64,000 nt of DNA from Bacillota bacterium (lineage in GTDB: Bacteria > Bacillota > Clostridia > Christensenellales > SZUA-584), in contig JAEZJG010000022.1 in the NCBI GenBank assembly GCA_023415795.1, positions 188,009 through 252,008 on the forward strand, given 5' to 3'. How positions within the stretch are numbered: position 1 is the stretch's first letter; every line of letters begins with the position of its first letter. Position numbers and translations under genes: made by a program. Shown here in pieces: positions 18,728 to 64,000 of the stretch. Under the pieces are notes generated by a model. That model searched no databases and was not told the DNA's origin. It saw only the letters and a program-made list of their open reading frames with translations.

Positions 18728-18765
18728 GCTCTGCGCGTCTATTAACAACCCAACTCCTGCCCAGA

Positions 18766-18832
18766 CCATCATTGCGAGCACTAGCGAAAAATATTCCGCT
18801 GCAACATCATGACCGTGGATGCTTAAGCGCCC
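18766..18832. repeat. partial copy of the composite repeat (locus 4), same orientation as locus 3
   Basis: ATCATTGCGAGCACTAGCGAAAAATATTCC…CATGACCGTGGATGC parallels GTCATTCCGAACGCAGTGAGGAATCCC…CATGACCGTAGGATGC of locus 3. Confidence 0.45.
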
Positions 18833-18989
18833 CTCTTTTCATCATCAGAGACCATTGTAGTTTAACAAATATGAACAGAGAATGAAAAATAGCCTGTGTG
18901 CGATTGTGAATTTAAGATACCCATGGTAATATTAATATCGTCTTCAAAAGCGTGTTTTACCGCGCGGTTTGAGACGGTCGGGAGAGGGT

Positions 18990-19856
18990 ATGTTCGGATA
19001 CGTACAGCCTTTGAAGCCGGAGCTGAAGGTGAAGGAGCTGGAAGCCTACAAGGGATATTACTGCGGCTTGTGCAAGGCGATTCGGGATAAATACACACAC
19101 GCAGCGCGTTTTATGCTAAACTACGACTGCGCTGTGCTGTCGATGCTGCTGTCGTCGATGAGCGGCGAAGGTTTGACGGTGGCTCAGGAACGGTGTGCAG
19201 CCAGTCCCGTGAAGAAGAAAACGGTGGTGCATGCACGTGAGGCACAGTACGCTGCCACGGTAAACGTCCTACTGGGTTGCGCCAAGCTTGCGGACAACGC
19301 AACGGATGAGCACAGCGTTTCGAGCGCGGCTCTCTCACTGTTGTATCGGCGGGTGATGCGCCAGGCAGAGAAGGACGAGCCGGCGCTGGCGGCGGAGTTT
19401 CGTGACAGGCTGGCGGTTTTGCGAGCGCAGGAGAAGGGGAAATGTCGAGAAGTGGATGCTGTTGCCGCCGAATTTGGGCGTCTTCTGTCTGCGGTTTTCG
19501 CGTCTGCGCCGTATGATTTTATCGACAACAGTGCAAAGCAGGCTCTGTCGCATTTTGGGTATCATCTGGGACGCTGGATATATATCGCGGATGCGGTTAA
19601 CGATATTGAGAAGGACCACAAAACGGGCAGCTATAACGTGTATCTGCTGCGGTCGCCGGGAGAACCCGCGCAGGTGCGCAGGGTGATAGAAGAGGAAGCA
19701 AGGTTCAACCTGCACATCTCATTGTCTGAGGCGTGCAAGGCCTATGAGCTGCTGGATATTAAAAGAGATAAGCCGCTGCTGGATAACATCATGTATCTGG
19801 GGCTCGCTAAAAAAACGGAGGATGTCTTGAAAGGGGAAAAGAATGGATCCGTATAA
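18990..19856 (+). CDS. DUF5685-like protein (conserved Firmicute protein of unknown function)
   Basis: Start at ATG 18990 (MFGYVQPLKPELKVKELEAYKGYYCGLCKAIRDKY…) after GGGAGAGGG. The N-terminal MFGYV…YCGLC signature is what I recall for DUF5685; this is from memory and unverified. Confidence 0.55.
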   Translation: MFGYVQPLKPELKVKELEAYKGYYCGLCKAIRDKYTHAARFMLNYDCAVLSMLLSSMSGEGLTVAQERCAASPVKKKTVVHAREAQYAATVNVLLGCAKLADNATDEHSVSSAALSLLYRRVMRQAEKDEPALAAEFRDRLAVLRAQEKGKCREVDAVAAEFGRLLSAVFASAPYDFIDNSAKQALSHFGYHLGRWIYIADAVNDIEKDHKTGSYNVYLLRSPGEPAQVRRVIEEEARFNLHISLSEACKAYELLDIKRDKPLLDNIMYLGLAKKTEDVLKGEKNGSV

Positions 19857-20475
19857 GGTGTTGGGGGTCAATACGTCCGCAACGGATGCCGAGATAAAAA
19901 GCGCGTACCGCAATCTGGCAAAGAAGTATCATCCGGACAGGTATCGGGGGCACGATCTTGAGGATTTGGCGGGAGAGCGGCTCAAGGAGATCAACGAAGC
20001 GTACGATATAATCCAGAAGGAGCGCCAAAATAGCGGCTATCGCCAGAGCTACGGCAGCGAGCAGTCGTACAGTGGCTCCTCGTCTTCAAACTCATCGTAC
20101 AGCGGCGGTTCCTCGCAGTTTACCGACGTGCGGCGGGCGCTGCAGGCGGGAGATTTGACCCGTGCCGATGCGATGCTGGACGCCATCACCAACCGTAACG
20201 CGGAGTGGCATTACCTAAAGGGTATGGTGCTGCTGCGCAAGGGCTGGTATGACGGCGCGCGCCAGCATTTTGCCACTGCCAACAGCATGGATCCATCGAA
20301 CGCGGAATACGCACAGGCGTTCCAGTCGATCAACAGGAACGCAACGGGCTATGGTCAGCAGTTTTACGGCAACCAGCAGGCTGGCGGTTCTAATATGTGC
20401 AGTATTTGCAGCGGACTGCTGTGCGCAGACTGTTGCTGCGAATGTGCCGGGGGAGACTGCATACCCTGCTGCTAA
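19843..20475 (+). CDS. J-domain protein with TPR-like middle region and extremely Cys-rich C-terminal tail
   Basis: MDPYKVLGVNTSATDAEIKSAYRNLAKKYHPDRY is a canonical J domain with HPD. The tail MCSICSGLLCADCCCECAGGDCIPCC has 11 Cys in 26 aa. The gene overlaps the upstream one by 14 nt. Confidence 0.8.
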   Translation: MDPYKVLGVNTSATDAEIKSAYRNLAKKYHPDRYRGHDLEDLAGERLKEINEAYDIIQKERQNSGYRQSYGSEQSYSGSSSSNSSYSGGSSQFTDVRRALQAGDLTRADAMLDAITNRNAEWHYLKGMVLLRKGWYDGARQHFATANSMDPSNAEYAQAFQSINRNATGYGQQFYGNQQAGGSNMCSICSGLLCADCCCECAGGDCIPCC

Positions 20476-49213: not shown

Positions 49214-49660
49214 ATGCTGTTGGGAGTACCGAAATTATTGTCGCCGGAGATTATTTCAACACTTTGTGAAATGGGTCATAGCGATGTCATCGTGATCGGG
49301 GATGCAAACTTTCCGGGCAAGCGCTTTGCGGAAGAAGGCAACTGTAAGTTTTTGAGGGCAGACGGTATCTCGGGTACGGCGCTGTTGGAAGCTATACTCT
49401 CCGTTATTCCGTGCGACACATACTGCGAGCATCCCGTCAAACTGATGCAGACCATGGAATGTGATCGGCATCTGGACATACCTATATGGGAAGAGTACAA
49501 AAAGATAGTGGCGAAGCATGATGAACGCGCAGATGCGGCTATCGGTTTTTTAGATAGATTTGACTTCTATGATGAAGCAAAGAAGTCCTACTGCATCATA
49601 CAATCGGGAGAAGAAGCAATTTACGCAAACATCATGATTCAAAAGGGAGTTATCAAATAG
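49214..49660 (+). CDS. fucU: RbsD/FucU family sugar mutarotase (FucU-like)
   Basis: MLLGVPKLLSPEIISTLCEMGHSDVIVIGDANFPG… is typical of L-fucose mutarotase/RbsD-FucU proteins. The substrate is not inferable from sequence. Confidence 0.75.
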   Translation: MLLGVPKLLSPEIISTLCEMGHSDVIVIGDANFPGKRFAEEGNCKFLRADGISGTALLEAILSVIPCDTYCEHPVKLMQTMECDRHLDIPIWEEYKKIVAKHDERADAAIGFLDRFDFYDEAKKSYCIIQSGEEAIYANIMIQKGVIK

Positions 49661-49661
49661 C

Positions 49662-51173
49662 ATGGCAAAGGATTTGCTGCTCGGCATAGATATAGGCACA
49701 AGCGGATGCAAAATAGCGTTGTTCTCGCCGGACGGTACGGTTATCTGTACTGTGGTGGAAGATTATCCGGTATACTACCCAGCTCCGGGCTTTGTGGAGC
49801 AGGAGCCGGACGATTGGTGGCACGCTGTATGTCGAGGTACCAAAAGAATGATTGCGGAGTATGGCGTGGACACTGCCCAAATCGCAGGTATTGGTGTCGA
49901 CGGTCAGAGCTGGGCTGCGATTGCGGTGGATCGGGACGGAAAGGCACTTACACGCAACCCGATTTGGATGGATACCCGGTCTGAAGCAATCTGTAAAGAG
50001 TTGAATGAAACAGTGGGTGAGGACGCAATATTCGAAGTGTCGGGCAACCCGCTGAAAGCACAATATACGACCGGCAAAATCATATGGTATCAGCGCAGCT
50101 TGCCGGAGGTTTACAAAAAGATCGATAAGGTTTTACAATCGAACAGCTTCATCGTATACCGCTTAACAGGTGTGTTGAGTCAGGATATGTCTCAAGGCTA
50201 TGGGCTGCACTGTTTTGACATGAGAAATGGCTGCTGGGATGATGCAATGGCAGCGGCACTGGGGATAAGCCGTCATCTGCTGCCCGACATCGCGCAATGC
50301 CACGAGGTGGTGGGTACGGTGACGACCGCGGCTGCGCAGAGTATGGGGATTTTGGCGGGTACACCGGTGGTGGCGGGCGGTTTGGATGCTGCCTGCGGGA
50401 CACTGGGAGCCGGTGTATTTCTTCCAGGGCAAACGCAGGAGCAGGGCGGTCAAGCTGGAGGCATGAGCATCTGCATGGATCAATACTGTGCGGATCCTAG
50501 ATTGATATTGAGCTATCACGTCGCGCCGAACCGGTGGCTGCTTCAGGGTGGAACAACGGGCGGCGGCGGTGTGCTGCGTTGGTTCCATGAACAGTTTGGT
50601 TATGAAGAGATACAAAGAGCGAAGGCAACGGGAGATTCCTCGTTTACGCTGCTCACAAATCTCGCGCAGACAGTATCGGCCGGCAGCGAGGGGCTGACAT
50701 TCCTGCCGTATATGGCGGGAGAGCGCTCGCCCATTTGGGATGAAAAAGCCAAAGGCGTGTTCTACGGCTTGGATTATTCGAAGACTAAGGCACATATGGT
50801 TCGGGCGGCAATGGAGGGCGCTGTATACGCTCTGCGCCATAACATTGAAGTGGCGGCTGGAGCAGGTGCCGAGGTGGGTACCATGCGCGCGATGGGTGGC
50901 GCGGCGAACTCACACTTCTGGACGCAGATGAAGGCGGACATAACGGGGAAGCCTATTGAAGTTCCCGCATCCGATGTGGCCACGACGCTGGGCGCGGCAC
51001 TGCTGGCTGGTGTCGGCTTGGGAATATACAGCGGTTTTGAGGATGCTGTGAATCAAACGGTGAAGGTAAAGCGTCGGCATGAGCCGAGCACACAGGACAA
51101 GACGGCCTATGATCGCGGTTATGAGACGTATTTGGAGCTCTATGCCGCGTTAAAAATTTTAATGCATAAGTAA
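49662..51173 (+). CDS. FGGY-family carbohydrate kinase (xylulokinase-like)
   Basis: …LLGIDIGTSGCKIALF…, …EQEPDDWW… and …GGGAANSHFWTQMKADITG… are FGGY N- and C-domain motifs. Confidence 0.85.
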   Translation: MAKDLLLGIDIGTSGCKIALFSPDGTVICTVVEDYPVYYPAPGFVEQEPDDWWHAVCRGTKRMIAEYGVDTAQIAGIGVDGQSWAAIAVDRDGKALTRNPIWMDTRSEAICKELNETVGEDAIFEVSGNPLKAQYTTGKIIWYQRSLPEVYKKIDKVLQSNSFIVYRLTGVLSQDMSQGYGLHCFDMRNGCWDDAMAAALGISRHLLPDIAQCHEVVGTVTTAAAQSMGILAGTPVVAGGLDAACGTLGAGVFLPGQTQEQGGQAGGMSICMDQYCADPRLILSYHVAPNRWLLQGGTTGGGGVLRWFHEQFGYEEIQRAKATGDSSFTLLTNLAQTVSAGSEGLTFLPYMAGERSPIWDEKAKGVFYGLDYSKTKAHMVRAAMEGAVYALRHNIEVAAGAGAEVGTMRAMGGAANSHFWTQMKADITGKPIEVPASDVATTLGAALLAGVGLGIYSGFEDAVNQTVKVKRRHEPSTQDKTAYDRGYETYLELYAALKILMHK

Positions 51174-51181
51174 AGGAAAAC

Positions 51182-52231
51182 ATGATGAAGGCAGCAGTTG
51201 TAGTAGCAAACGAAGATGTTCAGTATTTGGAGATCGAAGAGCCTCAGGTTACCGAAGGCACTGTTAAGGTTAAGGTGGCGATGTCGGGCATCTGCGGTTC
51301 GGATGTACCCAGAGTTCTCCATAACGGCGTACACTTCTACCCGATTGTGCTGGGGCATGAGTTCTCGGGCCAAATTGTGGAAGTCGGCGAAAAAGTGACA
51401 AGTGTCAAGGTAGGGGATAGAGTTGCGGGAGTGCCGCTGGTGCCATGTATGGTCTGCAGTGACTGCCAGCAGGGTAACTATGCGCTTTGCAAGCATTACA
51501 GCTTTATCGGCTCAAGACGAAACGGCAGCAACGCAGATTATGTTGTGGTGCCGGAACGCAACGTCGTGAAATTTGATAAGTCTGTCAGCTATGAGCAAGG
51601 CGCTATGTTTGAACCTTCGACAGTGGCTCTGCATGGGGTTCTGCAGAACGACTATCGGGGCGGCGGTACAGTGGCCATACTCGGTGCCGGCACAATCGGC
51701 ATATTCACATTTCAATGGGCGAAGCTGCTGGGCGCAACCAAGGTTATCGTATTTGATATCAGTGATGAGCGTTTGGCACTGGCTGAAAAGCTGGGGGCGG
51801 ACGGCATCATCAATACACTCAAAGAAAACTTTATGGACGAAGCACTGGAGGCAAGCGGCGGCAAGGGTTATGACTATGTATTTGAAACTGCCGGTGCCAC
51901 AGCCACAATGAAGATGGCCTTCAAACTGGCGGGGAGCAAAGCAAACGTCTGCTTTATCGGAACGCCGCATACCGAGCTTTGCTTTACGCCTGCCGAATGG
52001 GAAAACATGAATCGGAAGGAATTTAAGCTGACAGGTTCTTGGATGAGCTATAGCGCGCCGTTTCCGGGCAAGGAATGGACAATGACTGCAGAATACTATG
52101 CTTCGGGCAAACTCAAATTTGACGAAGGGCTGATTGGAGAACGCATATCGATGTCTGAGGCGCAGGAAGCATTCCAAAAGTTTAAGACACCGGGCGCGGT
52201 AAAAGGAAAGATTTTGCTGGTAAACAACTAA
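51182..52231 (+). CDS. zinc-dependent polyol/alcohol dehydrogenase (MDR family; sorbitol / galactitol-1-phosphate dehydrogenase-like)
   Basis: …SGICGSDVPR…, …GHEFSGQIVEVG…, the structural-zinc cysteines C..C..C…C (PCMVCSDCQQGNYALC) and the Rossmann ILGAGTIG. Confidence 0.85.
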   Translation: MMKAAVVVANEDVQYLEIEEPQVTEGTVKVKVAMSGICGSDVPRVLHNGVHFYPIVLGHEFSGQIVEVGEKVTSVKVGDRVAGVPLVPCMVCSDCQQGNYALCKHYSFIGSRRNGSNADYVVVPERNVVKFDKSVSYEQGAMFEPSTVALHGVLQNDYRGGGTVAILGAGTIGIFTFQWAKLLGATKVIVFDISDERLALAEKLGADGIINTLKENFMDEALEASGGKGYDYVFETAGATATMKMAFKLAGSKANVCFIGTPHTELCFTPAEWENMNRKEFKLTGSWMSYSAPFPGKEWTMTAEYYASGKLKFDEGLIGERISMSEAQEAFQKFKTPGAVKGKILLVNN

Positions 52232-52252
52232 TATAAAACGGAGGGAAGCAAA

Positions 52253-53263
52253 ATGGAATTTATTGATCCGACAAGGGTTCCGCAAAGAACGCTGTATGAC
52301 GGAGGCAAAATGCCTTGCATCGGCATGGGCACATTTGGCTCAGATAGATTTACACCGGATCAGGTGTCGGCGGCTGTCGCGGGTGCCATCAAGGTGGGCT
52401 ATCGCATGTTCGACTGCGCCGCCGTATACGGCAACGAAGATATGATCGGCGATGTGTTTCAGGATGCGTTCGATAAAGGCATTGTGAAGCGTGAAGAGCT
52501 GTTTATCACCACCAAGGTGTGGAACAACATGCACGGCAGAGGAGATGTTCTCATCTCCTGCGCGAAAAGCCTGAAGGATCTGCATCTGGACTATATCGAC
52601 GCGTTCTTCATCCACTGGCCGTTTGCAAACTATCATGCGCCGGGCTGCGACGGTGATGCGCGTAACCCGGACTCCAAGCCGTTCTCGGTTGACCGCTTTA
52701 TGGCTACCTGGCGGCAGTGTGAACGTTTGGTAGACATGGGTCTCGTGAAATACATCGGTATGTCGAGCATGACCATCCCCAAACTGGAGGCCGTGCTGCC
52801 GCTGTGCCGCATCAAACCGGCTGCCATTGAGATGGAGCTGCACCCCAGCTTCCAGCAGCCTGAGCTTTACGACTACATCGTCTCAAAAGGCATCGCGCCT
52901 ATCGGCTTTTGTCCGATTGGGTCGCCCACTCGCCCCGACCGCGACAAGACGGAGAACGACGTGGTGGATATTCAGATGCCCGAGGTTGTGGAAATCGCCA
53001 AGGCGCATGGCGTACACCCGGCTGTCATCTGCCTGAAATGGGCGGTGCAGCGCGGACAGACGCCGATACCCTTCTCGGTGTACGAGAACGAATACATAAG
53101 CAACCTGCGCTGCGTGACGGAAGACCCGCTCACGGATGCCGAGATGGAATCTATCAAATCGGCCGATAAGAACTGCCGCCTCATCAAGGGACAGGTGTTC
53201 CTGTGGGAAGGCGCAAAGAGCTGGGAAGATCTCTGGGATTTGGACGGTACAATCACAAAATGA
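52253..53263 (+). CDS. aldo/keto reductase
   Basis: …GMGTFGSD…, …FDCAAVYGNE…, …LFITTKVWN… and …YIDAFFIHWP… are AKR catalytic tetrad contexts. Confidence 0.85.
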   Translation: MEFIDPTRVPQRTLYDGGKMPCIGMGTFGSDRFTPDQVSAAVAGAIKVGYRMFDCAAVYGNEDMIGDVFQDAFDKGIVKREELFITTKVWNNMHGRGDVLISCAKSLKDLHLDYIDAFFIHWPFANYHAPGCDGDARNPDSKPFSVDRFMATWRQCERLVDMGLVKYIGMSSMTIPKLEAVLPLCRIKPAAIEMELHPSFQQPELYDYIVSKGIAPIGFCPIGSPTRPDRDKTENDVVDIQMPEVVEIAKAHGVHPAVICLKWAVQRGQTPIPFSVYENEYISNLRCVTEDPLTDAEMESIKSADKNCRLIKGQVFLWEGAKSWEDLWDLDGTITK

Positions 53264-54531
53264 TGACAGAAAAGTATTTCAACAAGCTTATTAGTGAGCA
53301 AAAGGGTGGCAGCGATAAGGCAATATGCTCCATATGCAGCGCCAACGAATTTGTGTTGGAGGCTGCAATGGAGGACGGTCGTGACAATGGACACATGGTT
53401 CTGATTGAGGCGACTGCTAATCAGGTGAACCAGTTCGGCGGTTATACCGGCATGAAGCCTCAGGATTTTATGGCGTTTGTAAGCCGTGTTGCGGACAAGG
53501 TTGGTTTGAGCAAGGATCAGCTGATACTGGGTGGAGATCACCTAGGACCGCTAACGTGGAAAGGTGAGGACGAATCCTCTGCCATGGAAAAGGCAGAGGA
53601 ACTGATCCGACAGTATGTGAACGCGGGATTCAGCAAGATACACCTTGACACCAGCATGCGTCTTGCGAACGATTCTGTCACGGAACGGCTGTCAGATGAA
53701 ACGATCTCAGGTCGTGCGGCACGGCTGTGTGCTGCTGCGGAAGGTGTCGGCGGAGTTAAGCCGGTCTATGTTATCGGCAGTGAGGTGCCCGTACCGGGCG
53801 GCGCAACGGAGAACGAAGACTCAATAGCGGTAACATCGCCGCAGGACTTGCAAGCAACGCTGGATGCGTTTAAAACTGCGTTTGCGAAAGCCGGTTTATC
53901 GGACGCATGGAAACGTGTGATCGCGGTGGTGGTGCAGCCGGGCGTTGAGTTTGCAGACAACACCATTATCAAGTACGACGCCGAAAAGGCGCAGGAGCTA
54001 ATCGCATACGCACAAAGTTTAGATGGAGTCGTGCTGGAAGGGCATTCCACCGATTATCAGCCCAAGGCCGCCCTTGATATGATGCGGCGCGACGGCATAG
54101 CAATCTTGAAGGTGGGCCCTGCACTGACGCTGGCGTTGAGGGAAGCATTGTTCGCGCTTGAGGATATGGAGCGCATATTGTATCCGTTCTCGCCGAAGGG
54201 CGGATATTCAAATTTCCGCGAAGTGCTTGAATTCAAGCTGATGAGCAATGATAAGTATTGGAAAAGCTACTACCATGGCAGCGATCAGGATATCGCTTAT
54301 GCCAGAAAATTTAGCTTGTCCGACAGGTGCCGTTATTATCTGGAGGATGAAGACATCAAGGCATCAATTGAAAGGCTGAGAGTCAATATCAATGCGGTCA
54401 GTGTGCCGTTTGGGCTGATATCGCAGTACTTCCCTGAGCTGAAGGAGAAGGTGCTTACAACGCAGTCGCCTGTAACAGCTGAGATGATGATTAAAGAACG
54501 TATCAAGTGCGTTCTCATGACTTACAGGTAA
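53260..54531 (+). CDS. GatZ/KbaZ-family protein (class II tagatose-bisphosphate aldolase accessory subunit / tagatose-6-phosphate 4-epimerase-like)
   Basis: Start at ATG 53260, overlapping the AKR stop (ATGA). …ICSICSANEFVLEAAMEDG…VLIEATANQVNQFGGYTGM… is typical of GatZ/KbaZ. No GatY/KbaY-type catalytic subunit is present in the locus. Confidence 0.8.
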   Translation: MMTEKYFNKLISEQKGGSDKAICSICSANEFVLEAAMEDGRDNGHMVLIEATANQVNQFGGYTGMKPQDFMAFVSRVADKVGLSKDQLILGGDHLGPLTWKGEDESSAMEKAEELIRQYVNAGFSKIHLDTSMRLANDSVTERLSDETISGRAARLCAAAEGVGGVKPVYVIGSEVPVPGGATENEDSIAVTSPQDLQATLDAFKTAFAKAGLSDAWKRVIAVVVQPGVEFADNTIIKYDAEKAQELIAYAQSLDGVVLEGHSTDYQPKAALDMMRRDGIAILKVGPALTLALREALFALEDMERILYPFSPKGGYSNFREVLEFKLMSNDKYWKSYYHGSDQDIAYARKFSLSDRCRYYLEDEDIKASIERLRVNINAVSVPFGLISQYFPELKEKVLTTQSPVTAEMMIKERIKCVLMTYR

Positions 54532-54572
54532 ATTAGTCGACAACACAACACTCTTCCTATTTTGATTCGGGG

Positions 54573-54612
54573 CTGGCTTGTTTCACTTTTGAAGCAAGCC
54601 AGTCCTGTTTTG
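54573..54612 (+). terminator. intrinsic terminator closing the sugar operon
   Basis: CTGGCTTG-N14-CAAGCCAG hairpin followed by TCCTGTTTTG. Confidence 0.6.
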
Positions 54613-54678
54613 TATGGCGACATATACGCCTGCGGTTCGGCATACGCTTTAATGAAAAAGCGATACGGAGGACACGAG

Positions 54679-55539
54679 ATGAACGAATCGCAGAGCGGGC
54701 AGTTTTTTCGTCCGCGCAAGCTGGGAGGGCTGTTGTTTGCCCTTGCCTGCTTTGACATTGTATTGGCACTGCTGGTGAATGCGGCGGGCGCGCCTGTTAC
54801 TGTATTCTCAGAAGCGGTGGCGGCACACAGCGCAAATACTGAATACAGCTGGTATACCATGCCCACGAAGGATGGCTCACAGCCCGCGCAACAGCCGGAG
54901 TTCTCCTTCATTGGGCAGTACGGGGGGTATTGGATCGGTGCGCCGGATGAGAAGGTGATCTACATCACATTTGATGCGGGTTACGAGAACGGCAATACAG
55001 CATCAATACTGGATGCCCTCAAGAAGCATAATGCCCCCGCTGCATTTTTTCTTGTGGATCACTACATCAGCAACAACCCCGATTTGGTAAAGCGCATGAC
55101 GGACGAGGGTCATCTGGTGTGCAGCCATTCCACAAGCCATAAGAACATGGCGGCAATGAGCGATTTCGAGACGTTCAAGAGTGAAATGACAGGTGTAGCA
55201 GAGCGGTGTGAAGCCGTCACGGGGCAGCCGATAGCACCCTATTTCCGTCCGCCGGAGGGACGCTTTTCCGAACAGTGCATGAAATACGCACAGCAGATGG
55301 GCTACAAGACGGTTTTCTGGAGCTTTGCGTATAAGGATTGGCTGGTGGACGCGCAACCCTCGGCAGCAGATGCCATCAACACCATCATCACCCGCACGCA
55401 TCCGGGCATGGTGGCATTGCTCCATGCCACATCAGCCACCAATGGCGCAATCATGGAAGATCTGCTGACGAAATGGGAAGAGATGGGTTACACCTTTGGC
55501 TCTTTGGATGATCTGACGCGAGAGGCACCTGGGGGCTGA
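54679..55539 (+). CDS. pdaA: polysaccharide deacetylase, PdaA-like (delta-lactam-biosynthetic de-N-acetylase of spore cortex)
   Basis: Start at ATG 54679 after GGAGGA. TM anchor, then …IYITFDAGYENGNTASILDALKKHNAPAAFFL…, …HSTSH… and …YFRPPEG…, which are NodB-domain motifs with a PdaA-like N-terminal context. Confidence 0.7.
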   Translation: MNESQSGQFFRPRKLGGLLFALACFDIVLALLVNAAGAPVTVFSEAVAAHSANTEYSWYTMPTKDGSQPAQQPEFSFIGQYGGYWIGAPDEKVIYITFDAGYENGNTASILDALKKHNAPAAFFLVDHYISNNPDLVKRMTDEGHLVCSHSTSHKNMAAMSDFETFKSEMTGVAERCEAVTGQPIAPYFRPPEGRFSEQCMKYAQQMGYKTVFWSFAYKDWLVDAQPSAADAINTIITRTHPGMVALLHATSATNGAIMEDLLTKWEEMGYTFGSLDDLTREAPGG

Positions 55540-55581
55540 GAGGCGTGTTCTGGGAATGTAACAAGAGGCTGATATTTATAT

Positions 55582-55608
55582 AAGAGCGGGTGCAATGTGC
55601 CCGCTCTT
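55582..55608 (+). terminator. hairpin after pdaA (possible terminator, poor T-run)
   Basis: AAGAGCGGG-N9-CCCGCTCTT. A TATAAT-like GATATAAT follows for mutY. Confidence 0.4.
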
Positions 55609-55648
55609 GTGATATAATAAGAATCAATAGCAATAAGGGTGGAGAAGC

Positions 55649-56686
55649 ATGGATACAGCAAAGCTGCTGGATTGGTATAGAACAAACAAAAGGGATCTGC
55701 CGTGGCGAAAAACCAGCGACGTATACGCGGTGCTGGTGTCTGAGATGATGCTGCAGCAAACAACGGTGGATACGGTGCTGGGATATTACGATCGTTTCCT
55801 GACGCGCTTTCCGCATGTGCAATCGCTGGCGGCGGCAAACGAGGAGGACGTTCTGGATGCATGGAAGGGGCTGGGCTACTACTCGCGGGCGCGTAACCTG
55901 CATCGGCTGGCAAAACAGGTGGCGGAAGCAGGCGGCGCTTTTCCCGCAACGCTGGAGGGGTGGCGCAAGCTACCCGGCGTGGGGCCTTACATCGCTGGAG
56001 CGGTGACCAGCATTGCGCTGGGGCTGCCGAATGCGGCGGTGGACGGCAACGTGCTACGCGTGTTCGCGCGGGTGGATGGCATAGGGGACGACATCATGCT
56101 GCCGCAGACAAAGAAGCGGGTAGAGGAACGCGTACAGGCGCTGATACCGCATGACGCAACGAGCGATTTTACGCAAGCACTGATGGAACTGGGGGCACTG
56201 GTATGCCGACCCTCCTCGCCGGACTGTGACAGCTGCCCGGTGGCTGCGAACTGTATGGCTCGTGAGAGGGGCTTGGTGGATGTGCTGCCTGTGAAGAAGC
56301 CCAAGGAGAAGCAGCAGGCAGAGGCGATGTGGGTGGCGGTGGTGATGACGCCGGAAGCGGTATTGCTGGAGCACAGGCGAGAGGATACGCTGTTGGCACG
56401 CATGTGGGGCTTGCCCATCGTTGTGCAGCAAGGGGACAGGTCTGCCGAAGAACTGCTGTCAGAGAAGTACGGTGTCATTCTGTCGGACGGTATTCCGGCG
56501 GGGCATGCGACACATGTGTTCACGCATCGGCGTTGGGAAATGGATATCGTACGGTTTGAACCGGAGAAGGAATTCCCGGTAAGCGGTGCATTGGAATGGG
56601 TGAGCTGGGAACAATTTGAGAGAAAGCCGGTACCCACGGCATTTATGAAGGTGCTGCGGGCGGCGCGAAAGGAGGATGGGTTATGA
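55649..56686 (+). CDS. mutY: A/G-specific adenine DNA glycosylase
   Basis: …[22 protein letters not shown]…, HhH-GPD (…[12 protein letters not shown]…), the 4Fe-4S cluster loop C..C..C…C ([17 protein letters not shown]) and a NUDIX-like C-terminal domain. Confidence 0.9.
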
Positions 56687-57618
56687 ACGAGAAGACAGCT
56701 ATTTTTGCGGGCGGGTGTTTTTGGTGCATGGAGCCGCCCTATGCCAAACTGGACGGCGTGATAAAGGTGGAGCCGGGTTACACCGGCGGGAGGCGGGAGA
56801 ACCCGACCTATGAGCAGGTGTGCAGCGGCGCAACGGGTCATTACGAGGCGGTGCGCGTGACATATGATGCGGACGTTGTATTGTATGATCAACTGCTGGA
56901 CGTGTTCTGGCGGCAGATTGACCCCACGGACGCAGGCGGGCAGTTTGCGGACAGGGGCTCGCAGTATAAATCGGCGATATTCTACACGGACGAGGCGCAG
57001 CGCACGGCAGCAGAGGCGTCCAAAAAGCGTGTGGCACGGTTGCTGGGGGCACAGGTGAATACGGAGATTTTACCGGCGGCTCCGTTCTGGACTGCGGAGG
57101 GCTACCACTGTGAGTACTATAAAAAGAACCCGGAGCATTACGGGCGGTATAAGCGCGGCTCAGGACGCGAAGCGTTCATCGGCAGAGTGTGGGGCGACGA
57201 GGCGCTCAAGGCGCGTCTATCGCCGATGCAATATGATGTCACACAGCGCGGTGCGACGGAGCCGCCGTTCAGCAACGAATTTTGGGACAATCACAAGGCG
57301 GGGTTGTATGTGGACATCGTTTCCGGCGAACCGTTGTTTACATCGATGGATAAGTTCGATTCGGGCTGCGGCTGGCCCAGCTTCACAAAGCCAGTGGACG
57401 GACCCCGCGTCACGGAGCATCGGGATGTGAGCCATGGTATGATACGTACAGAGGTGCGAACCAAGGTTTCAAATGCGCACCTGGGGCACGTGTTTGACGA
57501 TGGTCCCAATGGTCAGCCGCGCTATTGCATCAACTCGGCAGCGCTGCGCTTTGTGCCGCTGGAGAAACTGGATGAGGAGGGTTACGGACAGTACAAAGCC
57601 TTGTTTGAAACCAAGTGA
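56683..57618 (+). CDS. msrAB: bifunctional peptide-methionine (S)- and (R)-S-oxide reductase MsrA/MsrB
   Basis: …[15 protein letters not shown]… (MsrA GCFWC) and …GCGWPSF… / …[10 protein letters not shown]…RYCINS (MsrB). The start ATG overlaps the mutY stop (ATGA). Confidence 0.9.
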
Positions 57619-57669
57619 GGGGTTCCCCGCTAAGCGGGGCGCGTGTTATTATAAGCAGGGGGTAGAGCG

Positions 57670-58422
57670 ATGAAGATTGTAACATGGAATGTAAATGGGC
57701 TGCGTGCCTGCTGGGGCAAAGGGTTCGAGGATTTCTTCCGTGAGGCTGATGCGGACATGTTCTGTATACAGGAAACCAAGATGCAGCGCGGCGACTTTGA
57801 GTTCGCGCCACAGGGCTGGCACGGCTATTGGAACGACGCGGTGAAGAAGGGCTATTCGGGTACGGCGGTGTTTACCAAACGTCAGCCGGAGGCGGTAACC
57901 TATGGCATCGGCGTGGCAGAGCACGACAACGAAGGGCGCGTGATAACGCTGGAATATGCGGAACTTTTTCTGGTGAACGTATACGTACCCAATTCGCAGG
58001 ATGAATTGAAGCGGCTGCCATATCGCATGACCTGGGATGAGGCGTTTCGTGATTATCTCAAGAAGCTGGACGAGAAGAAGCCGGTGGTGGTCTGCGGAGA
58101 TTTCAACGTGGCGCATCACGAGATCGATATCAAGAACCCGGCGGCCAACAGGCGCAATGCGGGCTTCACCGACGAGGAACGCGCCGATTTCACGCAGCTG
58201 CTGGATGCCGGGTTTGCGGATGCATTTCGCCGCCTGAACCCGGATGCTAAGGATATGTACACCTACTGGTCGTATCGCTTTGGCGCAAGAAGCCGCAACG
58301 CGGGCTGGCGTATCGACTATTTCTGCGTCTCCGAGCGGCTGATGGGTGATGTAAAGGGTGTGGAAATCAATAGTGACGTGATGGGGTCGGATCACTGTCC
58401 GGTCACACTGTCGCTGTTTTAA
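57670..58422 (+). CDS. xth: exodeoxyribonuclease III
   Basis: MKIVTWNVNGLRA…FCIQETK…, …GDFNVAH… and …GSDHCPV… are ExoIII/APE1 family motifs. Confidence 0.9.
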   Translation: MKIVTWNVNGLRACWGKGFEDFFREADADMFCIQETKMQRGDFEFAPQGWHGYWNDAVKKGYSGTAVFTKRQPEAVTYGIGVAEHDNEGRVITLEYAELFLVNVYVPNSQDELKRLPYRMTWDEAFRDYLKKLDEKKPVVVCGDFNVAHHEIDIKNPAANRRNAGFTDEERADFTQLLDAGFADAFRRLNPDAKDMYTYWSYRFGARSRNAGWRIDYFCVSERLMGDVKGVEINSDVMGSDHCPVTLSLF

Positions 58423-58467
58423 AAGTATTTTGATGCGTAAAGCATCCGAAAATAAGGGGGTATTGAG

Positions 58468-58617
58468 ATGAAGTTTGTATGCACGCTCTGCGGATATGTG
58501 TATTCGGTGGAGAACAATGAAGCGGACTACGATAACGTGATGGACATGCTGCCTGAGGATTTTACTTGCCCGGGCTGCGGCGCGCCAAAAAGCGCGTTTG
58601 AGCCGGTTAAGGAATAA
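58468..58617 (+). CDS. rubredoxin-like small protein (49 aa; below the ORF-track size cut-off)
   Basis: Hand translation: MKFVCTLCGYVYSVENNEADYDNVMDMLPEDFTCPGCGAPKSAFEPVKE. It has the two CxxCG knuckles with rubredoxin spacing. ATG lies 8 nt after AAGGGGG. Confidence 0.6.
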   Translation: MKFVCTLCGYVYSVENNEADYDNVMDMLPEDFTCPGCGAPKSAFEPVKE

Positions 58618-58655
58618 CCGCGCATAATCAATCGCCCGCGCCGGATAATAAAAGT

Positions 58656-59297
58656 ATGACGACAACCGACGCGGGCGGCAACGCCAGAATATTTATTGAA
58701 TTTGAAGCGCACCTGATGGGCGATGAAAAGCCGTCGGAGTATTTCGACAGCCTGCTTGACGCGGAAAAATTTCCGTCCCAATCGCCGTTTGATATATTGA
58801 GCGGTTTGGCAGAGGTGGAGCAGTCTCCTAAGCACCATCCGGAGGGAAATGTGTGGCGGCACACGATGCTGGTGACAAACAACGCCGCGCAACTCAAAAG
58901 CCAAAGCAAACATCCGCGTGCGCTGATGTGGGCGGCACTGCTGCACGATGTGGGCAAGAGGCAGACAACCAAGGTGCGCAACGGGCGCATCACCGCATAC
59001 GATCACGACAAAGCGGGGCGTGCGTTGGCAGAGCGCTTTCTGCGCGAGTGCGGGCAGGATGAGGCCTTCGTGAAAATGGTGGGTTCCTTGGTGCGCTGGC
59101 ACATGCAGGCGCTGTACCATACACGGCATTTGCCGTACTATAACCCCAAAGCGATGCGAGCCGAGACGGACATTGACGAGATAGCGCTGCTGTGCCTGTG
59201 TGACAGACTGGGGCGCGGTCCCGTAACGGCGGCGGATATAGCTCGAGAGCAAGCTCAGATTGCAGCGTTTATTGAGACGAGCCGCCGCATGTATTGA
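58656..59297 (+). CDS. HD-domain phosphohydrolase
   Basis: …SPKHHPEGNVWRHT… and …ALLHDVGK… form the H…HD metal-binding motif. Confidence 0.7.
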   Translation: MTTTDAGGNARIFIEFEAHLMGDEKPSEYFDSLLDAEKFPSQSPFDILSGLAEVEQSPKHHPEGNVWRHTMLVTNNAAQLKSQSKHPRALMWAALLHDVGKRQTTKVRNGRITAYDHDKAGRALAERFLRECGQDEAFVKMVGSLVRWHMQALYHTRHLPYYNPKAMRAETDIDEIALLCLCDRLGRGPVTAADIAREQAQIAAFIETSRRMY

Positions 59298-59412
59298 TGA
59301 AAGTACACAATATCTATTCATATATTTCTGTCGGAATTTGTTGAATCATTCAGTAACGCATGTTAAAATAAGGTAACTAATTTAACTGATATCAATACAG
59401 GGAGGATATTGC

Positions 59413-61086
59413 ATGAAAAACCATCCCTTCAATTCGGTTGAGATCGTCAAAGACTTAAAGGAACTGACCGATTCAAGCACACGCCGCTTCGCTGATAAGG
59501 ATGCCTATCTTATCATGACGGGCAAAAACGAATACAAAGCCGTGACATACCAGCGCTTCGGATTCGAACTGAGCGCATTGGCCAACGCGCTGATTGCGAG
59601 GGGGCTGAATGGCCGCCGCATTGCCATTATCGGGGAGAATTCCTATCAGTGGGTGCTGTCCTATTTCTCAGTGGTCAACACCAATTCGACGGCGGTGCCT
59701 TTAGACAAGGAGCTGCTTGCGGAAGATCTGACAGCGCTGGTTCGGCGGTCGGGCGCATCCGTGCTGTTTTTCTCGCCCACATATGCAGAAGAGGCCGAGC
59801 AGATCAGAGAAGCGTTGCCGGAGCTCATCACCATATCCTTCGGCGAAAAGAGTGTAACATCGCTGTCGCTGGAAGAGCTGATGAACGAGGGGTTCGCGCT
59901 GCTGGAGCGCGGTGAGGATCACTATTCCGGCATTGTGATTGATCGGGAGCGCGTCTGCTCCATACTGTTCACCTCAGGCACCACTGGCTTCTCCAAAGGC
60001 GTGATGCTGTGCCATCGCAATCTTGCGGCGAACACGGTGGCAGCCTGTCAAATGGTGCTGTTCCGCAAGGAAGACACCATGCTCTCGCTGTTGCCAATGA
60101 ACCACGCCTACGAGTGCGTATGTACCATCTATGGTCCCATGCTTTACGGCTCTACCGTGGCTTTCTGCTCCGGCGTCAAGCAACTGCCCGACTGTTTAAA
60201 GCTATTCCGCCCCACTGTGCTGGTGCTGGTGCCGCTGTATGTGGAAACCTTCCATAAGCGCATCTGGGAAAAGGCGCGCAAGGAGGGCAAGGAAAATAAG
60301 CTTAAGATGGGTATCGCTCTGGGCAACATTGCGGCGGCATTGGGCATTCGTATCCGGGAAAAGCTGCTGCATGAGGTGCGTGAGGCCTTTGGCGGTCGGC
60401 TGCGGCTGGTGGTGAGCGGCGGCGCATACATGAGCCCCAGACTGATTAAGGCATACCGTGAGTTTGGCGTTATCATCATGCACGGCTATGGTGCAACCGA
60501 ATGCTCACCGATCATCACGGCCAAGTTCATTGAATGGCGCAGAGATAAATCGGTGGGTGTGCCGCTACCCTGCTGCGAGGTGGGCTTCGATGCGGACGGT
60601 CAGATACTCATACGGGGCGAAAGCGTGATGCTGGGTTATCTGGACGATGAGGAAGCCACAGCTCAGGTGTTCGACGGCGAGTGGTACAAGTCCGGAGATC
60701 TGGGGTATCGCGACAAAGATGGCTTTATCTATGTCACCGGTCGCAGCAAGGATATGATCGTACTGAAGAACGGCAAAAACATCATGCCGATGGAAATCGA
60801 AAGCATGCTGGAACAGAGCCCGCTCATTGCTGAGGTAATGGTCAGGGAAGCGCCGGGTGACGAGAACGGATCGGACAAGCTGATGGCAATCATTTATCCC
60901 GATCCCGCGAAAAAGCAGGAGCTGGGCAATGGTCTGCATCAGGCTCTTCAAGCCTATATCGACGAAGTCAACAAGAAGCTGGCCAGCTTTAAGCAGATAC
61001 ACCTGTTTGCGCTGCGCGATACGGAGTTTCCCAAAACGACGACGCGCAAAATCAAACGCTTTCAGGTTACCTTCGGAAAGAATTAA
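59413..61086 (+). CDS. AMP-binding enzyme (long-chain fatty acyl-AMP/CoA ligase-like)
   Basis: ANL-superfamily core motifs …ILFTSGTTGFSKGVML… (A3), …HGYGATE… (A5), …SGDLGYRDKDGFIYVTGRSKD… (A7/A8) and …TTRKIKR (A10). Confidence 0.85.
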   Translation: MKNHPFNSVEIVKDLKELTDSSTRRFADKDAYLIMTGKNEYKAVTYQRFGFELSALANALIARGLNGRRIAIIGENSYQWVLSYFSVVNTNSTAVPLDKELLAEDLTALVRRSGASVLFFSPTYAEEAEQIREALPELITISFGEKSVTSLSLEELMNEGFALLERGEDHYSGIVIDRERVCSILFTSGTTGFSKGVMLCHRNLAANTVAACQMVLFRKEDTMLSLLPMNHAYECVCTIYGPMLYGSTVAFCSGVKQLPDCLKLFRPTVLVLVPLYVETFHKRIWEKARKEGKENKLKMGIALGNIAAALGIRIREKLLHEVREAFGGRLRLVVSGGAYMSPRLIKAYREFGVIIMHGYGATECSPIITAKFIEWRRDKSVGVPLPCCEVGFDADGQILIRGESVMLGYLDDEEATAQVFDGEWYKSGDLGYRDKDGFIYVTGRSKDMIVLKNGKNIMPMEIESMLEQSPLIAEVMVREAPGDENGSDKLMAIIYPDPAKKQELGNGLHQALQAYIDEVNKKLASFKQIHLFALRDTEFPKTTTRKIKRFQVTFGKN

Positions 61087-61088
61087 TT

Positions 61089-61313
61089 ATGTTTGAACAA
61101 GTAAAGAACATCATCGAGGAGCACATTGACTGTTCCAATATCATCATTTCACCGGATACAGACCTTATCAGCGACCTGTCCGTTAATTCGCTGGATTTGG
61201 TGGAGGTGGTTTGTGCCTTTGAAGTGGCGTTTGATATCGTGGTGCCGGAAAAGGACATTCGCAAACTAACAAAAGTCCGGGATATCGTCGAGTATCTGGA
61301 AGCGGGGGCATGA
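61089..61313 (+). CDS. acyl carrier protein (stand-alone)
   Basis: 74 aa. …LISDLSVNSLDLVEVV… is the phosphopantetheine attachment context (D-x-S-L). The gene starts 2 nt after the ligase stop. Confidence 0.8.
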   Translation: MFEQVKNIIEEHIDCSNIIISPDTDLISDLSVNSLDLVEVVCAFEVAFDIVVPEKDIRKLTKVRDIVEYLEAGA

Positions 61314-61954
61314 GAGTTTTCTTCGCCGAGGCAGTGCCGTTGGAACTAGCACTGCGCTGGGCAGATGGTCTTTGGTCCGAAAAGCGCGCGCGTGTGCTGC
61401 GTATGCGTCACGACAGCGACAAGGCGCTGGCGCTTACGGCGCATCGGCTGCTTTGTTATGCCGTCAAAACCGTGCATGGTCTTGTGCTGCAGCCGGAGAA
61501 TTTTGCGCTGGAGCCGCAAGGTAAGCCGTATCTGTCGGCGTATCCCGATATCCATTTCAGCATCAGCCATTCGGGCAGCATGGCAATGTGCGCGCTGGAC
61601 GACAGCCCCGTGGGTGCGGACATAGAGAAGCTGCGCGATGTGGGCGCGGGCGTTGCCGAGCGCGTGATGACGGCAGACGAGCTGCGCGTTTATGCAAAAA
61701 CCTCCGACAAGCAAAGCTTCTTCTTTCAGGTTTGGACGCTAAAGGAAGCTTATATTAAATACCGCGGTGAAGGGCTGTCTTTGCCGATGCGATCATTCTC
61801 CGCACAACCGTTGGACGGCTGCATCAGCACTGACACAGGCTGTGAGTTTTGGTCGGCTGAGCCTGCCCCCGGCTATCAGGCAGCGGTGTGCGCTCGGCAC
61901 ATCGCACATCCGCAGGCAGCAATGGTGCACGTCCGGCAGCTGGAACGCATGTAA
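61310..61954 (+). CDS. Sfp-type 4'-phosphopantetheinyl transferase
   Basis: …GKPYLSAYPDIHFSISHSG…, …GADIE… and …WTLKEAYIKYRG… are the three PPTase motifs. It overlaps the ACP stop by 4 nt. Confidence 0.8.
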   Translation: MRVFFAEAVPLELALRWADGLWSEKRARVLRMRHDSDKALALTAHRLLCYAVKTVHGLVLQPENFALEPQGKPYLSAYPDIHFSISHSGSMAMCALDDSPVGADIEKLRDVGAGVAERVMTADELRVYAKTSDKQSFFFQVWTLKEAYIKYRGEGLSLPMRSFSAQPLDGCISTDTGCEFWSAEPAPGYQAAVCARHIAHPQAAMVHVRQLERM

Positions 61955-62060
61955 TATGCGTCGGGTTACAAGAACATCACCTCGCAATTTTGCTCTTCAG
62001 AGGGTTAGTGGTTCATGCGGACATCAGGCGAACTTCATCAAGAAAAGGTAGGTACAGTGA

Positions 62061-64000
62061 ATGAATCAACAGGACTCCGGCAGCTGCACTCTGTCCCATC
62101 CTCAGCAACGCATTTGGTATGCGGAAATGCTGCACCCCGGCACCGGTATGTGGAACAACGCCGGGACGCTCAAGATAAAAGGTCTGCTGGATTTTGCGCT
62201 GCTGGAAAAAGCACTCAACATATTGCTGCGTGACAACGAAACGCTGCGCATCCGCATCGGTCAGAAAGACGGAACGCCGTATCAGTATGTGGCAGGCTAT
62301 GTGCCGCAGACTGTGGATGTGCTGGACTTTTCGGAGCGCGGTGTGGAAAAGCTGTATGAATGGGACAGTATCCAGACTCAGACGCCCATGCCGATGATTG
62401 ACAGCAGCCTTTGCTATTTCGCGTTTTTGCGCCTCAGTGAAACGGAGGGCGGCATATACGCAAAGTTCCATCACATCATATCAGACGCGCTTTCTATCGT
62501 CAGCTTTTCCAACCACCTTATGGGCATATACCAGACGCTGCTGACCGGAAGCGAGCCGGAACCGCTCAGCGTCCGCTCCTATATTGATTACCTGACAGAC
62601 GAGCAGTCATATCTTTCATCCAAGCGTTTTCAATACGACAAGGAGTATTGGACGGGGCTATTTGAGCAGCTGCCCGAACCTACCGTATTAAAGCAGAACA
62701 AGACCAACTACTATGGCCTGAAGGCCAAACGCCGCACCCACGTGATACGACCACGCCTGTCCCGCCAGATACGTGATTACTGCGCGCGCACAGGGGTTAC
62801 CGTGTATGCGCTTTTCCTGTCCGCACTGGCGGTATATATCAATCGTGTCACCACCAAAAAGGATTTGGTAATCGGCGCGCCCGTTGCCAACCGCACCACC
62901 GCGCAATCCAAGGATATGTTCGGCATGTTCGTGAGCACGGTTCCTATTCGTATACAGCTGAAGGATGAGATGTCGTTTAACGATTTTGCGCAGGAAGTAT
63001 CGGGCAGCTGGTTCTCCGCGCTGAAGCATCAGAAATATCCATACAACCTGTTGATGCAGGATCTGCGCGGTGCACATAAGGGTCTGGAAGCACTGTACGA
63101 CGTCACACTGTCTTACCAGATCGGCAAGTTTGAGAAAAATGCGGACAACTTTACCTACGAGGGGCGCTGGCATTTCTCCGGCTATCAGGAGCCCTCGCTG
63201 TGCATCCACGTCAACGATCGCGAGGACGAAGGGCGCTTCGTGGTAGACTACGATCATCATACGCCGCTGTTTTCGGACAAGGAGATTGAGTTTATCCACG
63301 CCCACCTCCTTAACATCATTCGGGACGGGCTGGTACGCCCGGATAAGCCGCTGTACATGCTGGATCTGATGTCGGACGATGAATATGAGCGCGTCGTATA
63401 TCAGTTCAACGCCACCGACAGCATGTTCCCGCAGGGGGAAACGCTCATCGATCTGTGGAACAAGCGGATAGCGCTGACCGACGGTGATGCTGTAGCCGTG
63501 ATGTGCCGCGGCGAAGGCATAACCTACAAGCAGCTGGACGAGCGTTCCTCCGCGCTGGCGCAGTATTTGCGCAGCAAGGGTGTGGGGGCGGACGATATCG
63601 TGGGGCTGCTTGTAAAGCGTACGCTGGACTATCCTGTCTGCGTGCTGGCGATACTGAAGGCGGGCGGCGCGTTTCTGCCCATTGATGCGGAGCTGCCTTC
63701 CGAGCGGCTGGCCTATATATTGAAGGATAGCGGCGCGAGTGTGTTGCTGATTTCGCCGGAGCTGAAGGAGCAGTATGCGGACGATGGCAGCTTGCACGTC
63801 ATATCGGCGGATATGTCGCATGCGCCTGCGGCAGCGCCGGAGCCGCTATGTCGGCCAAGTAATCTCGCCTATCTGATCTATACCTCCGGATCAACAGGAA
63901 AGCCCAAGGGTGTGATGATCGAGCATCGGTCCATCGTCCACTTTGTTTATTCTTTGAGCCGCCTGTGGGATTTCTCACCGGGTGCGCGCCTGCTGTGCGC
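62061..64000 (+). CDS. non-ribosomal peptide synthetase, N-terminal part (C domain then A domain; continues beyond the window)
   Basis: Not in the ORF track because there is no stop in the window; hand-translated from ATG 62061. MNQQDSGSCTLSHPQQRIWYAEML…, C3 motif FHHIISDALS (~62466-62495), …MFGMFVSTVPIR…, then A-domain motifs …ITYKQLDERSSALAQYL…, …LAILKAGGAFLPID… and …LAYLIYTSGSTGKPKGVMIEHRS (63864-63932). The track's minus-strand ORF 62688..63821 is an antisense shadow. Confidence 0.85.
   Translation, partial: MNQQDSGSCTLSHPQQRIWYAEMLHPGTGMWNNAGTLKIKGLLDFALLEKALNILLRDNETLRIRIGQKDGTPYQYVAGYVPQTVDVLDFSERGVEKLYEWDSIQTQTPMPMIDSSLCYFAFLRLSETEGGIYAKFHHIISDALSIVSFSNHLMGIYQTLLTGSEPEPLSVRSYIDYLTDEQSYLSSKRFQYDKEYWTGLFEQLPEPTVLKQNKTNYYGLKAKRRTHVIRPRLSRQIRDYCARTGVTVYALFLSALAVYINRVTTKKDLVIGAPVANRTTAQSKDMFGMFVSTVPIRIQLKDEMSFNDFAQEVSGSWFSALKHQKYPYNLLMQDLRGAHKGLEALYDVTLSYQIGKFEKNADNFTYEGRWHFSGYQEPSLCIHVNDREDEGRFVVDYDHHTPLFSDKEIEFIHAHLLNIIRDGLVRPDKPLYMLDLMSDDEYERVVYQFNATDSMFPQGETLIDLWNKRIALTDGDAVAVMCRGEGITYKQLDERSSALAQYLRSKGVGADDIVGLLVKRTLDYPVCVLAILKAGGAFLPIDAELPSERLAYILKDSGASVLLISPELKEQYADDGSLHVISADMSHAPAAAPEPLCRPSNLAYLIYTSGSTGKPKGVMIEHRSIVHFVYSLSRLWDFSPGARLLC

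Follow-up and report, generated by a model that had tools for sequence, protein, structure and literature searches.

Over its final 4.6 kb, the window (the whole 64,000-nt stretch of contig JAEZJG010000022.1, from a Christensenellales genome of the Clostridia) carries four genes on the same strand: an ANL-superfamily acyl ligase, a free-standing acyl carrier protein (ACP), an Sfp-type phosphopantetheinyl transferase (PPTase) and the open frame of a nonribosomal peptide synthetase (NRPS) which runs past the end of the window. Together with the histidine kinase and regulator genes located 3′ of the NRPS in its relatives, they are predicted to form a six-gene operon that makes an N-acyl dipeptide aldehyde, a reading to which we give a probability of roughly 0.78. 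It draws on the observed identities of genes and domains, their order and spacing, the starter type of the first condensation (C) domain, the architecture of the complete NRPS in contig L055, intact motifs and the co-occurrence of ligase and ACP. Coordinates are collected in Table 1.

Architecture of the complete NRPS

A protein search with the window ligase retrieved a 100% identical protein (P0200) and, with it, contigs L055, L056 and L057. Positions 1-14588 of L055, a 138-kb ENA scaffold, correspond to window positions 49413-64000; 151 of the 14,588 nt differ (99.0% identity), and L055 is therefore a strain of the same species. Its NRPS gene (12649-20028) is one intact open reading frame (ORF) of 2459 aa. 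As shown by Pfam, the protein includes, in this order, condensation, adenylation (A), carrier (T), C, A, T and NAD_binding_4 domains, the latter being a terminal reductase (R) domain (C-A-T-C-A-T-R). Both T domains carry GGDSL and the second C domain (C2) carries HHSISDA. In the R domain (NAD_binding_4, 3.9e-36), the GxxGxxG and YxxxK motifs are present as TGATGYLG and YVRSK. The NRPS of L056 is likewise intact.

Ten further relatives (L003-L011), which share 50-87% identity among themselves, likewise have an unsplit NRPS of C-A-T-C-A-T-R order, the ORFs being about 2460-2480 aa long. The 646 NRPS codons visible in the window align with L004 without gaps at 82.5% identity, and scans with this fragment gave best relatives at 85% among genome contigs and 81% among metagenome contigs. 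In L001 and L002, the NRPS is split into two overlapping ORFs by single frameshifts inside the first A domain (A1), at about 11199-11201 (around aa 771) and about 3641-3648 (around aa 741), respectively. These are probably assembly errors. A programmed frameshift was considered and rejected, since the positions differ and ten relatives are unsplit.

The sequence-only reading of the window had left room for a truncated or frameshifted NRPS and had held that the product could not be predicted. The conspecific L055 speaks against the former, its NRPS being intact. The latter was too cautious, since the class of the product, an N-acyl dipeptide with reductive release, can be predicted from the C-A-T-C-A-T-R order of L055.

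The first C domain groups with starter domains

The first C domain (C1) is located at the N-terminus of the NRPS, without an upstream carrier domain or NRPS gene; no other NRPS-like match was found within the 64-kb window. Compared with PDB structures, C1 scored nearly equally on the elongation domains Txo2 (113 bits) and Txo1 (109 bits), the starter domains RzmA-Cs (104 bits) and CDA-C1 (102 bits; CDA, calcium-dependent antibiotic) and the LCL domain TycC6 (96 bits). The C2 domains of the family matched TycC6 with 333 bits and the LgrA C domain with 251 bits, and did not reach the starter structures within an E-value of 1e-10. As judged by these sequence scores, C2 is of the ordinary LCL type.

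We further placed C1 in a neighbour-joining tree of 39 sequences, calculated from BLOSUM62 score distances over the N-terminal ~340 residues (335 columns), a simple distance method with two starter references. One split, recovered in 200 of 200 bootstraps, unites the C1 family with RzmA-Cs (7C1H), CDA-C1 (4JN3) and the nearest N-terminal homologues, which come from Brevibacillus and Paenibacillus. The C2 family, TycC6, LgrA, Txo1/2 and other elongation domains fall on its other side. In all of the nearest database homologues of C1 the domain is N-terminal. At the level of motifs, the C1 segment YWTGLFEQLPEP at 62646-62681 resembles YWTGLFTDRPEP of CDA-C1, both domains share a YWTGLF..PEP segment and C1 is devoid of the TDRPRP motif of elongation domains. 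The catalytic motif is kept as HHI(I/M)SD(A/G) in the orthologues shown, with Ala for the usual Gly in most of the close ones.

Every test agrees, within a small reference set, and these comparisons support the assignment of C1 as a starter-type condensation domain. Such domains accept an acyl group bound as a thioester either to an ACP or to CoA (PMC7804268). The phylogeny that the sequence-only reading had proposed as a check thus places C1 in the starter group and not with LCL domains. Its suggestion of a lipoinitiation logic is supported by this grouping and by the ligase and ACP pair found in 17 loci (see below).

Ligase, ACP and PPTase

The core motifs of the ligase are intact: FTSGTTGFSKG (59968-60000), YGATE (60487-60501), YKSGDLG (60685-60705) and the A10 lysine region (61042-61059). 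Its best NCBIfam match is the long-chain-fatty-acid--CoA ligase model PRK06187, with 261 bits (cut-off 476). The top 25 models are all CoA ligases, none of which reaches its cut-off, and the ligase also scores on models for MenE, benzoate-CoA ligase and malonyl-CoA synthase. Among PDB structures, acyl-CoA synthetases score best (about 107 bits); feruloyl-CoA, anthranilate-CoA and oxalyl-CoA ligases are also near the top, and MenE and luciferases are matched as well. None of the 43 chains matched at E <= 1e-20 is named as a fatty-acyl-AMP ligase (FAAL). Homologues are annotated by JGI as long-chain acyl-CoA synthetase.

The ligase is thus not FAAL-like by similarity, as judged from PDB and NCBIfam names, the FAAL-specific insertion not having been inspected by residue. 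It does show the pairing typical of FAALs, with a dedicated carrier gene 2 nt away. It is an ANL acyl ligase, long-chain acyl-CoA-synthetase-like, which probably loads the ACP. It had first been labelled an acyl-AMP ligase from the sequence alone; the assignment to the ANL acyl ligases stands, while similarity of the FAAL type does not, the best matches being acyl-CoA ligases.

The phosphopantetheine serine of the ACP is located in the motif NSLDL (61185-61199), and the protein scores 62 bits on the NCBIfam model acyl_carrier TIGR00517 (cut-off 70). The PPTase carries FSISHSG, GADIE and WTLKEAYIK. Its length, close to the ~220 aa of such two-lobed enzymes, its ACPS and AASDHPPT_N domains and its GxDxE and W/KEA motifs are those of the Sfp type. 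Its top NCBIfam match is AusB, with 82 bits (cut-off 225), and no record matched the exact PPTase sequence of the window.

The ligase-ACP cassette in related loci

Ligase and ACP occur together in 17 of the 17 loci which have either gene (L001, L003-L008, L010, L012, L018, L028-L031 and L055-L057), always in the same order and on the same strand, directly 5′ of the PPTase and NRPS genes. The cassette is restricted to a Christensenellales-like subclade in which NRPS identity is at least about 48%. It is absent from L009, L011, L032, L053 and all of the more distant relatives, so that the family in general can do without it. The cassette is thus an accessory, which presumably fixes the acyl donor.

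Between the window and L003-L008, identities amount to 71-81% for the ligase, 62-67% for the PPTase, 74-85% for the C1-A1 part of the NRPS and 84-92% for exonuclease III. The higher divergence of ligase and PPTase among these close relatives suggests a weaker constraint on the accessory cassette. One of the cassette loci, L010 (JBLNCA010000025.1), is labelled as a Burkholderiales metagenome-assembled genome. Its gene order is of the same Clostridia type, from exonuclease III and HD through ligase, ACP, PPTase and NRPS to kinase and regulator, with identities of 47-78%, and the label probably results from a mistake in binning or labelling.

Predicted pathway and alternatives

In the proposed pathway, the Sfp-type PPTase would convert the free-standing ACP and both NRPS carrier domains to their holo forms. 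We infer that the ANL ligase would use ATP to activate a carboxylic acid, most probably a fatty acid, and load it onto the neighbouring ACP, the donor for the starter domain C1. Module 2, with its ordinary LCL domain, would add the second amino acid, and reduction with NAD(P)H by the terminal R domain would release an N-acyl dipeptide aldehyde. Because the amine would be acylated, no pyrazinone cyclisation is expected and the electrophilic aldehyde should persist.

Stachelhaus codes were extracted from L055 by alignment to GrsA-PheA, the reference being checked by its reproducing DAWTIAAICK. The codes are DIMCVMFICK for A1, with an entirely hydrophobic pocket, and DIGQLGGVYK for A2. The A2 code shares 5 of 10 positions with the glycine code, which gives only a weak lead. 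No match to the codes of six orthologues was found in the literature searched.

Several points weigh against this pathway. It is built on sequence comparison. The window ends before the specificity residues of A1, and the architecture is taken from a strain with 1% nucleotide divergence. A starter C domain is kept without adjacent ligase or ACP in the four loci named above and in all more distant relatives. The ligase is not FAAL-like by similarity, so that an acyl-CoA rather than an acyl-ACP donor is possible. Reductase domains may also carry out a four-electron reduction, which would give the alcohol. Finally, DIMCVMFICK and DIGQLGGVYK match nothing in the literature searched and fit none of the standard codes known to us.

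Some of these points lead to different explanations. The ligase and ACP might not feed the NRPS at all, C1 drawing instead on the cellular acyl-CoA pool or on acyl-ACP of fatty acid synthesis, as for surfactin and glidobactin. The acyl-CoA ligases and absence of FAALs among the best ligase matches, the JGI labels and the starter domains of L009, L011, L032 and L053 all agree with such a route, and several starter C domains use CoA-bound donors (PMC7804268). Nevertheless, ligase and ACP never occur singly. They keep a fixed order directly 5′ of the PPTase and NRPS, and the genes are packed tightly (2-nt gap, 4-nt overlap). The acyl-CoA route gives the free-standing ACP no role and, in distant relatives, the cassette stays joined to the NRPS while the upstream flanks vary. 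We consider this explanation decidedly improbable. A broken NRPS in the source genome, or one with a different downstream architecture, would yield no predicted product; the window stops at codon 646, and the L001 and L002 genes are split. This is very hard to reconcile with the intact 2459-aa ORF of L055 (99.0% identity), the equally intact L056, ten further intact relatives and the gap-free alignment of the visible codons with L004 (82.5%), the L001 and L002 frameshifts lying at different sites and being maybe assembly errors.

Another alternative concerns the nature of the acid, which could be aryl, branched or hydroxylated, for example, so that the product would be an N-capped dipeptide aldehyde or alcohol and no lipopeptide. 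We regard this as unlikely, if well conceivable: the ligase stays below the cut-off of every NCBIfam model, the models for MenE, benzoate-CoA ligase and malonyl-CoA synthase score as well, feruloyl-CoA, anthranilate-CoA and oxalyl-CoA ligases are among its top PDB matches, and the natural transfer by RzmA-Cs is that of acetyl (PMC7804268). However, the highest-scoring models and the source annotations are those of long-chain fatty-acid ligases, the ACP is AcpP-like, and the acyl chain is C8-C12 in those relatives of the product class which have been characterised. We retain the synthesis of an N-acyl dipeptide aldehyde, primed through the ligase and ACP, as the preferred reading.

If this is correct, the dipeptide may be new, its A-domain codes being unmatched, and the aldehyde may serve in protease inhibition, in signalling or in both. 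A ligase and ACP of its own should fix the acyl chain, and heterologous production could then be cleaner than with borrowed host acyl donors.

A histidine kinase and an HD-GYP regulator follow the NRPS in related loci

In L055, a histidine kinase gene starts 7 nt past the NRPS stop. Its product includes a HisKA_7TM N-terminal region, with the seven hydrophobic segments found in this kinase, followed by PAS and HATPase domains. The same arrangement, NRPS directly followed by a HisKA_7TM kinase and an HD-GYP regulator, was observed in every locus with at least 31% NRPS identity and available downstream DNA, about 30 loci in total, from Christensenellales, Peptococcaceae, Sporobacter and metagenomes. 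The pair is absent from NRPS relatives below 31% identity, and the genes outside the NRPS-kinase-regulator block vary by lineage. Over 23 loci, identity of the kinase and of the regulator follows that of the NRPS (Spearman 0.86 and 0.96, respectively). From these sequence relationships, NRPS, kinase and regulator look like one inherited functional unit across Clostridia.

The regulator has a REC-DUF3369-HD-GYP architecture in which the HD and HHExxDGxGYP motifs are intact and a DNA-binding domain is absent; it is therefore not a conventional cluster-situated transcription factor. Exactly this architecture is that of the RpfY family, e.g. Vibrio cholerae VCA0210 (bioRxiv 10.1101/2021.11.05.467447). 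The gene of the regulator described here is situated beyond the end of the window and was seen in the relatives only; no link of the RpfY family to an NRPS was found reported. Similarly, nothing relevant on dipeptide aldehydes together with a histidine kinase, or on their acting in cyclic di-GMP signalling, was found in the literature searched.

The strict and deep linkage of NRPS, kinase and phosphodiesterase raises the idea that such aldehydes may act in cyclic di-GMP (c-di-GMP) signalling. The aldehyde could be the ligand of the co-transcribed membrane kinase, in an autoinducer circuit with c-di-GMP hydrolysis as its output. This is speculation, and rather unlikely to hold as it stands. If true, protease inhibition would represent no more than one aspect of what these products do, or would be a side effect. 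The core finding is routine for natural-product genome mining, to which the signalling link adds some interest.

Elsewhere in the window, a c-di-GMP-I riboswitch (Rfam RF01051) was detected at 7454-7540 (+) with 62.9 bits (gathering score 35), about 200 nt 5′ of an ORF (7744-9309, 521 aa) of the metallo-beta-lactamase/beta-CASP/RMMBL type, which is RNase J-like. The presence of this riboswitch indicates that the organism uses c-di-GMP-dependent control.

Coordinates and other features of the window

Table 1. Position of the predicted operon and its elements in the window (in related contigs for the last row)
Feature	Position	Strand	Remarks
Promoter-like TTGAAT-17 nt-TAAAAT, extended-10 TG	59341-59369	+	In the 115-nt AT-rich gap 5′ of the ligase gene
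ANL-superfamily acyl ligase	59413-61086	+	557 aa; Pfam AMP-binding 2e-62 + AMP-binding_C_3
Free-standing ACP, AcpP-like	61089-61313	+	74 aa; PP-binding 2e-9
Sfp-type PPTase	61310-61954	+	214 aa; ACPS 5e-17 + AASDHPPT_N
PPTase-NRPS spacer	61955-62060	+	106 nt
NRPS gene, 5′ 1940 nt	62061-64000	+	ATG at 62061; 646 codons open to the window end
NRPS starter-type C domain	62082-63392	+	aa 8-444; Pfam Condensation 1.4e-84
NRPS C1 catalytic HHxxxD motif, HHIISDA	62469-62489	+	aa 137-143
NRPS A1 domain, N-terminal part	63477-63995	+	aa 473-645; AMP-binding 7.6e-45, profile positions 7-209 of 384
NRPS A3 core motif, YTSGSTGKPKG	63879-63911	+
Kinase/regulator region 3′ of NRPS	L055 20036-21674; L004 17364-20751; L053 15426-18441

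The Pfam E-values of the four genes exclude chance. ORF calls, Pfam and translation reproduce exactly the genes, coordinates and spacings given by the sequence-only reading, and Pfam agrees with its description of an NRPS frame which opens with a C domain (HHIISDA) followed by an A domain. The A3 motif that it had placed at 63864-63932 lies inside that range. The NRPS is missing from the ORF list because its frame never stops within the window; the start is backed by the orthologues, all of which begin with MNQQ or MxxQ at the same position. The minus-strand ORFs 62013-62474 and 62688-63821, antisense to the NRPS, were dismissed as by-products of GC-rich coding DNA.

The promoter-like site 5′ of the ligase matches the consensus and no more, since such sites are no commoner in the region than expected from shuffled sequence. 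A ribosome-binding site GGGAGG precedes the ligase ATG, and together with the position of the promoter-like site would fit an operon start. The ACP ATG is located 2 nt past the ligase stop and the PPTase gene begins within the end of the ACP gene (ATGA, 4-nt overlap), a spacing which suggests that the three genes are translationally coupled. No terminator-like site was found in the spacer between PPTase and NRPS. As shown by alignment, the last ~55 nt of this spacer (~62006-62060) are conserved in the window, L003, L008 and L018 and partly in L004 and L005, and could be a 5′ untranslated region or an internal promoter element. The part of the spacer before ~62006 is not alignable among close relatives.

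The genes 5′ of the ligase are of housekeeping type (exonuclease III, rubredoxin and an HD protein) and are conserved in close relatives only. The rubredoxin gene (58468-58617, +, 49 aa), located between those for exonuclease III and the HD-domain protein, is below the 50-aa threshold of the ORF listing; it was called in L055-L057 with a Pfam Rubredoxin match. Further away, two tandem tRNA-Met (CAT) genes are located at 14636-14712 and 14760-14836 (+), 47 nt apart. A 744-aa ORF at 42889-45123 (-) combines a LacI helix-turn-helix, a periplasmic-binding fold and a C-terminal SBP_bac_1 domain, and is an unusual fusion or, possibly, two genes read as one.

Comparison with known systems

N-acyl dipeptide aldehydes of gut Clostridia are potent inhibitors of cathepsins and the proteasome. 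Guo et al. (2017, in Cell) reportedly obtained N-octanoyl-Met-Phe-H from a gut Clostridia cluster, and ruminopeptin is said to have been assigned to the rup cluster of Ruminococcus bromii by Schneider and Balskus (2018). N-octanoyl-Met-Phe-H is the product of the Clostridium NRPS cluster BGC0001686 (PMC8518294), and ruminopeptin, from Ruminococcus, likewise belongs to the N-acylated dipeptide aldehydes (PMC8518294; PMC12327764). The locus described here resembles these aldehyde clusters in its bimodular NRPS with a C domain first and a reductase last, in its host, an anaerobic Clostridia, and in the predicted product.

A very abundant metagenome family, represented by L053 and L046, shares the C-A-T-C-A-T-R protein and also the kinase and HD-GYP regulator encoded after it. 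A search with the L046 NRPS gave 2756 proteins at E <= 1e-50, including clusters of more than 1000 member sequences. However, its identity to the present locus amounts to only 31-32%, it is devoid of an adjacent ligase, ACP and PPTase, and its A-domain codes correspond to Val or Thr whereas those reported here are unmatched. The contig accessions suggest the human gut as its habitat. The relatives of the present locus stem from bioreactor and digester metagenomes.

The aureusimine system of Staphylococcus aureus (AusA/AusB; phevalin, tyrvalin) also consists of a bimodular, reductase-terminated NRPS and an adjacent Sfp-type PPTase. In contrast to the present locus, AusA has no N-terminal C domain and is accompanied by neither ligase nor ACP. 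The best NCBIfam match of the L004 orthologue is the AusA model NF047350, with 1747 bits (cut-off 2500) over model positions 387-2368, which cover A-T-C-A-T-R; with a score below the cut-off and an extra N-terminal C domain, it is not an AusA equivalog. The free-amine dipeptide aldehyde of AusA cyclises to a pyrazinone, a cyclisation which N-acylation would block here. The sequence-only reading had allowed for a match to an already characterised cluster. No close characterised match emerged, the identity to the metagenome family being 31-32% and the score on AusA below its cut-off.

The lipoinitiation logic is that of CDA, A54145 and daptomycin (DptE/DptF), in which the acid passes from a ligase to a free-standing ACP and, through a starter C domain, to the first amino acid (PMC7804268); C1 groups with CDA-C1. 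Unlike these systems, the NRPS described here has two modules, a reductase at its end and no cyclising thioesterase. The ligases of CDA, A54145 and daptomycin are of the FAAL type, whereas that of the window is acyl-CoA-synthetase-like.

In a sister clade from Peptococcaceae and Sporobacter (L014, L019, L025, L033, L036, L037 and L048; ~37% identity), the same kinase-regulator pair is kept and the reductase is replaced by a hydrolase-like tail of about 240 aa, with a GHC(A/V)GS motif that has a cysteine at the position of the thioesterase serine. Most of its members have codes for Ser (DVWHFSLV[DE]K) and Thr (DFWNIGMVHK), from which L019 and L025 deviate. It is conceivable from these sequences that the product is an N-acyl-Ser-Thr with another electrophilic release, possibly as a beta-lactone.

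Taken together, the product class is already known, and what is particular to the present locus is its dedicated ligase-ACP-PPTase cassette, the acyl-CoA-synthetase-like nature of the ligase and the unmatched A-domain codes. If the predicted pathway holds, it would extend the N-acyl dipeptide aldehydes to an uncultured Christensenellales-like lineage of anaerobic bioreactors.

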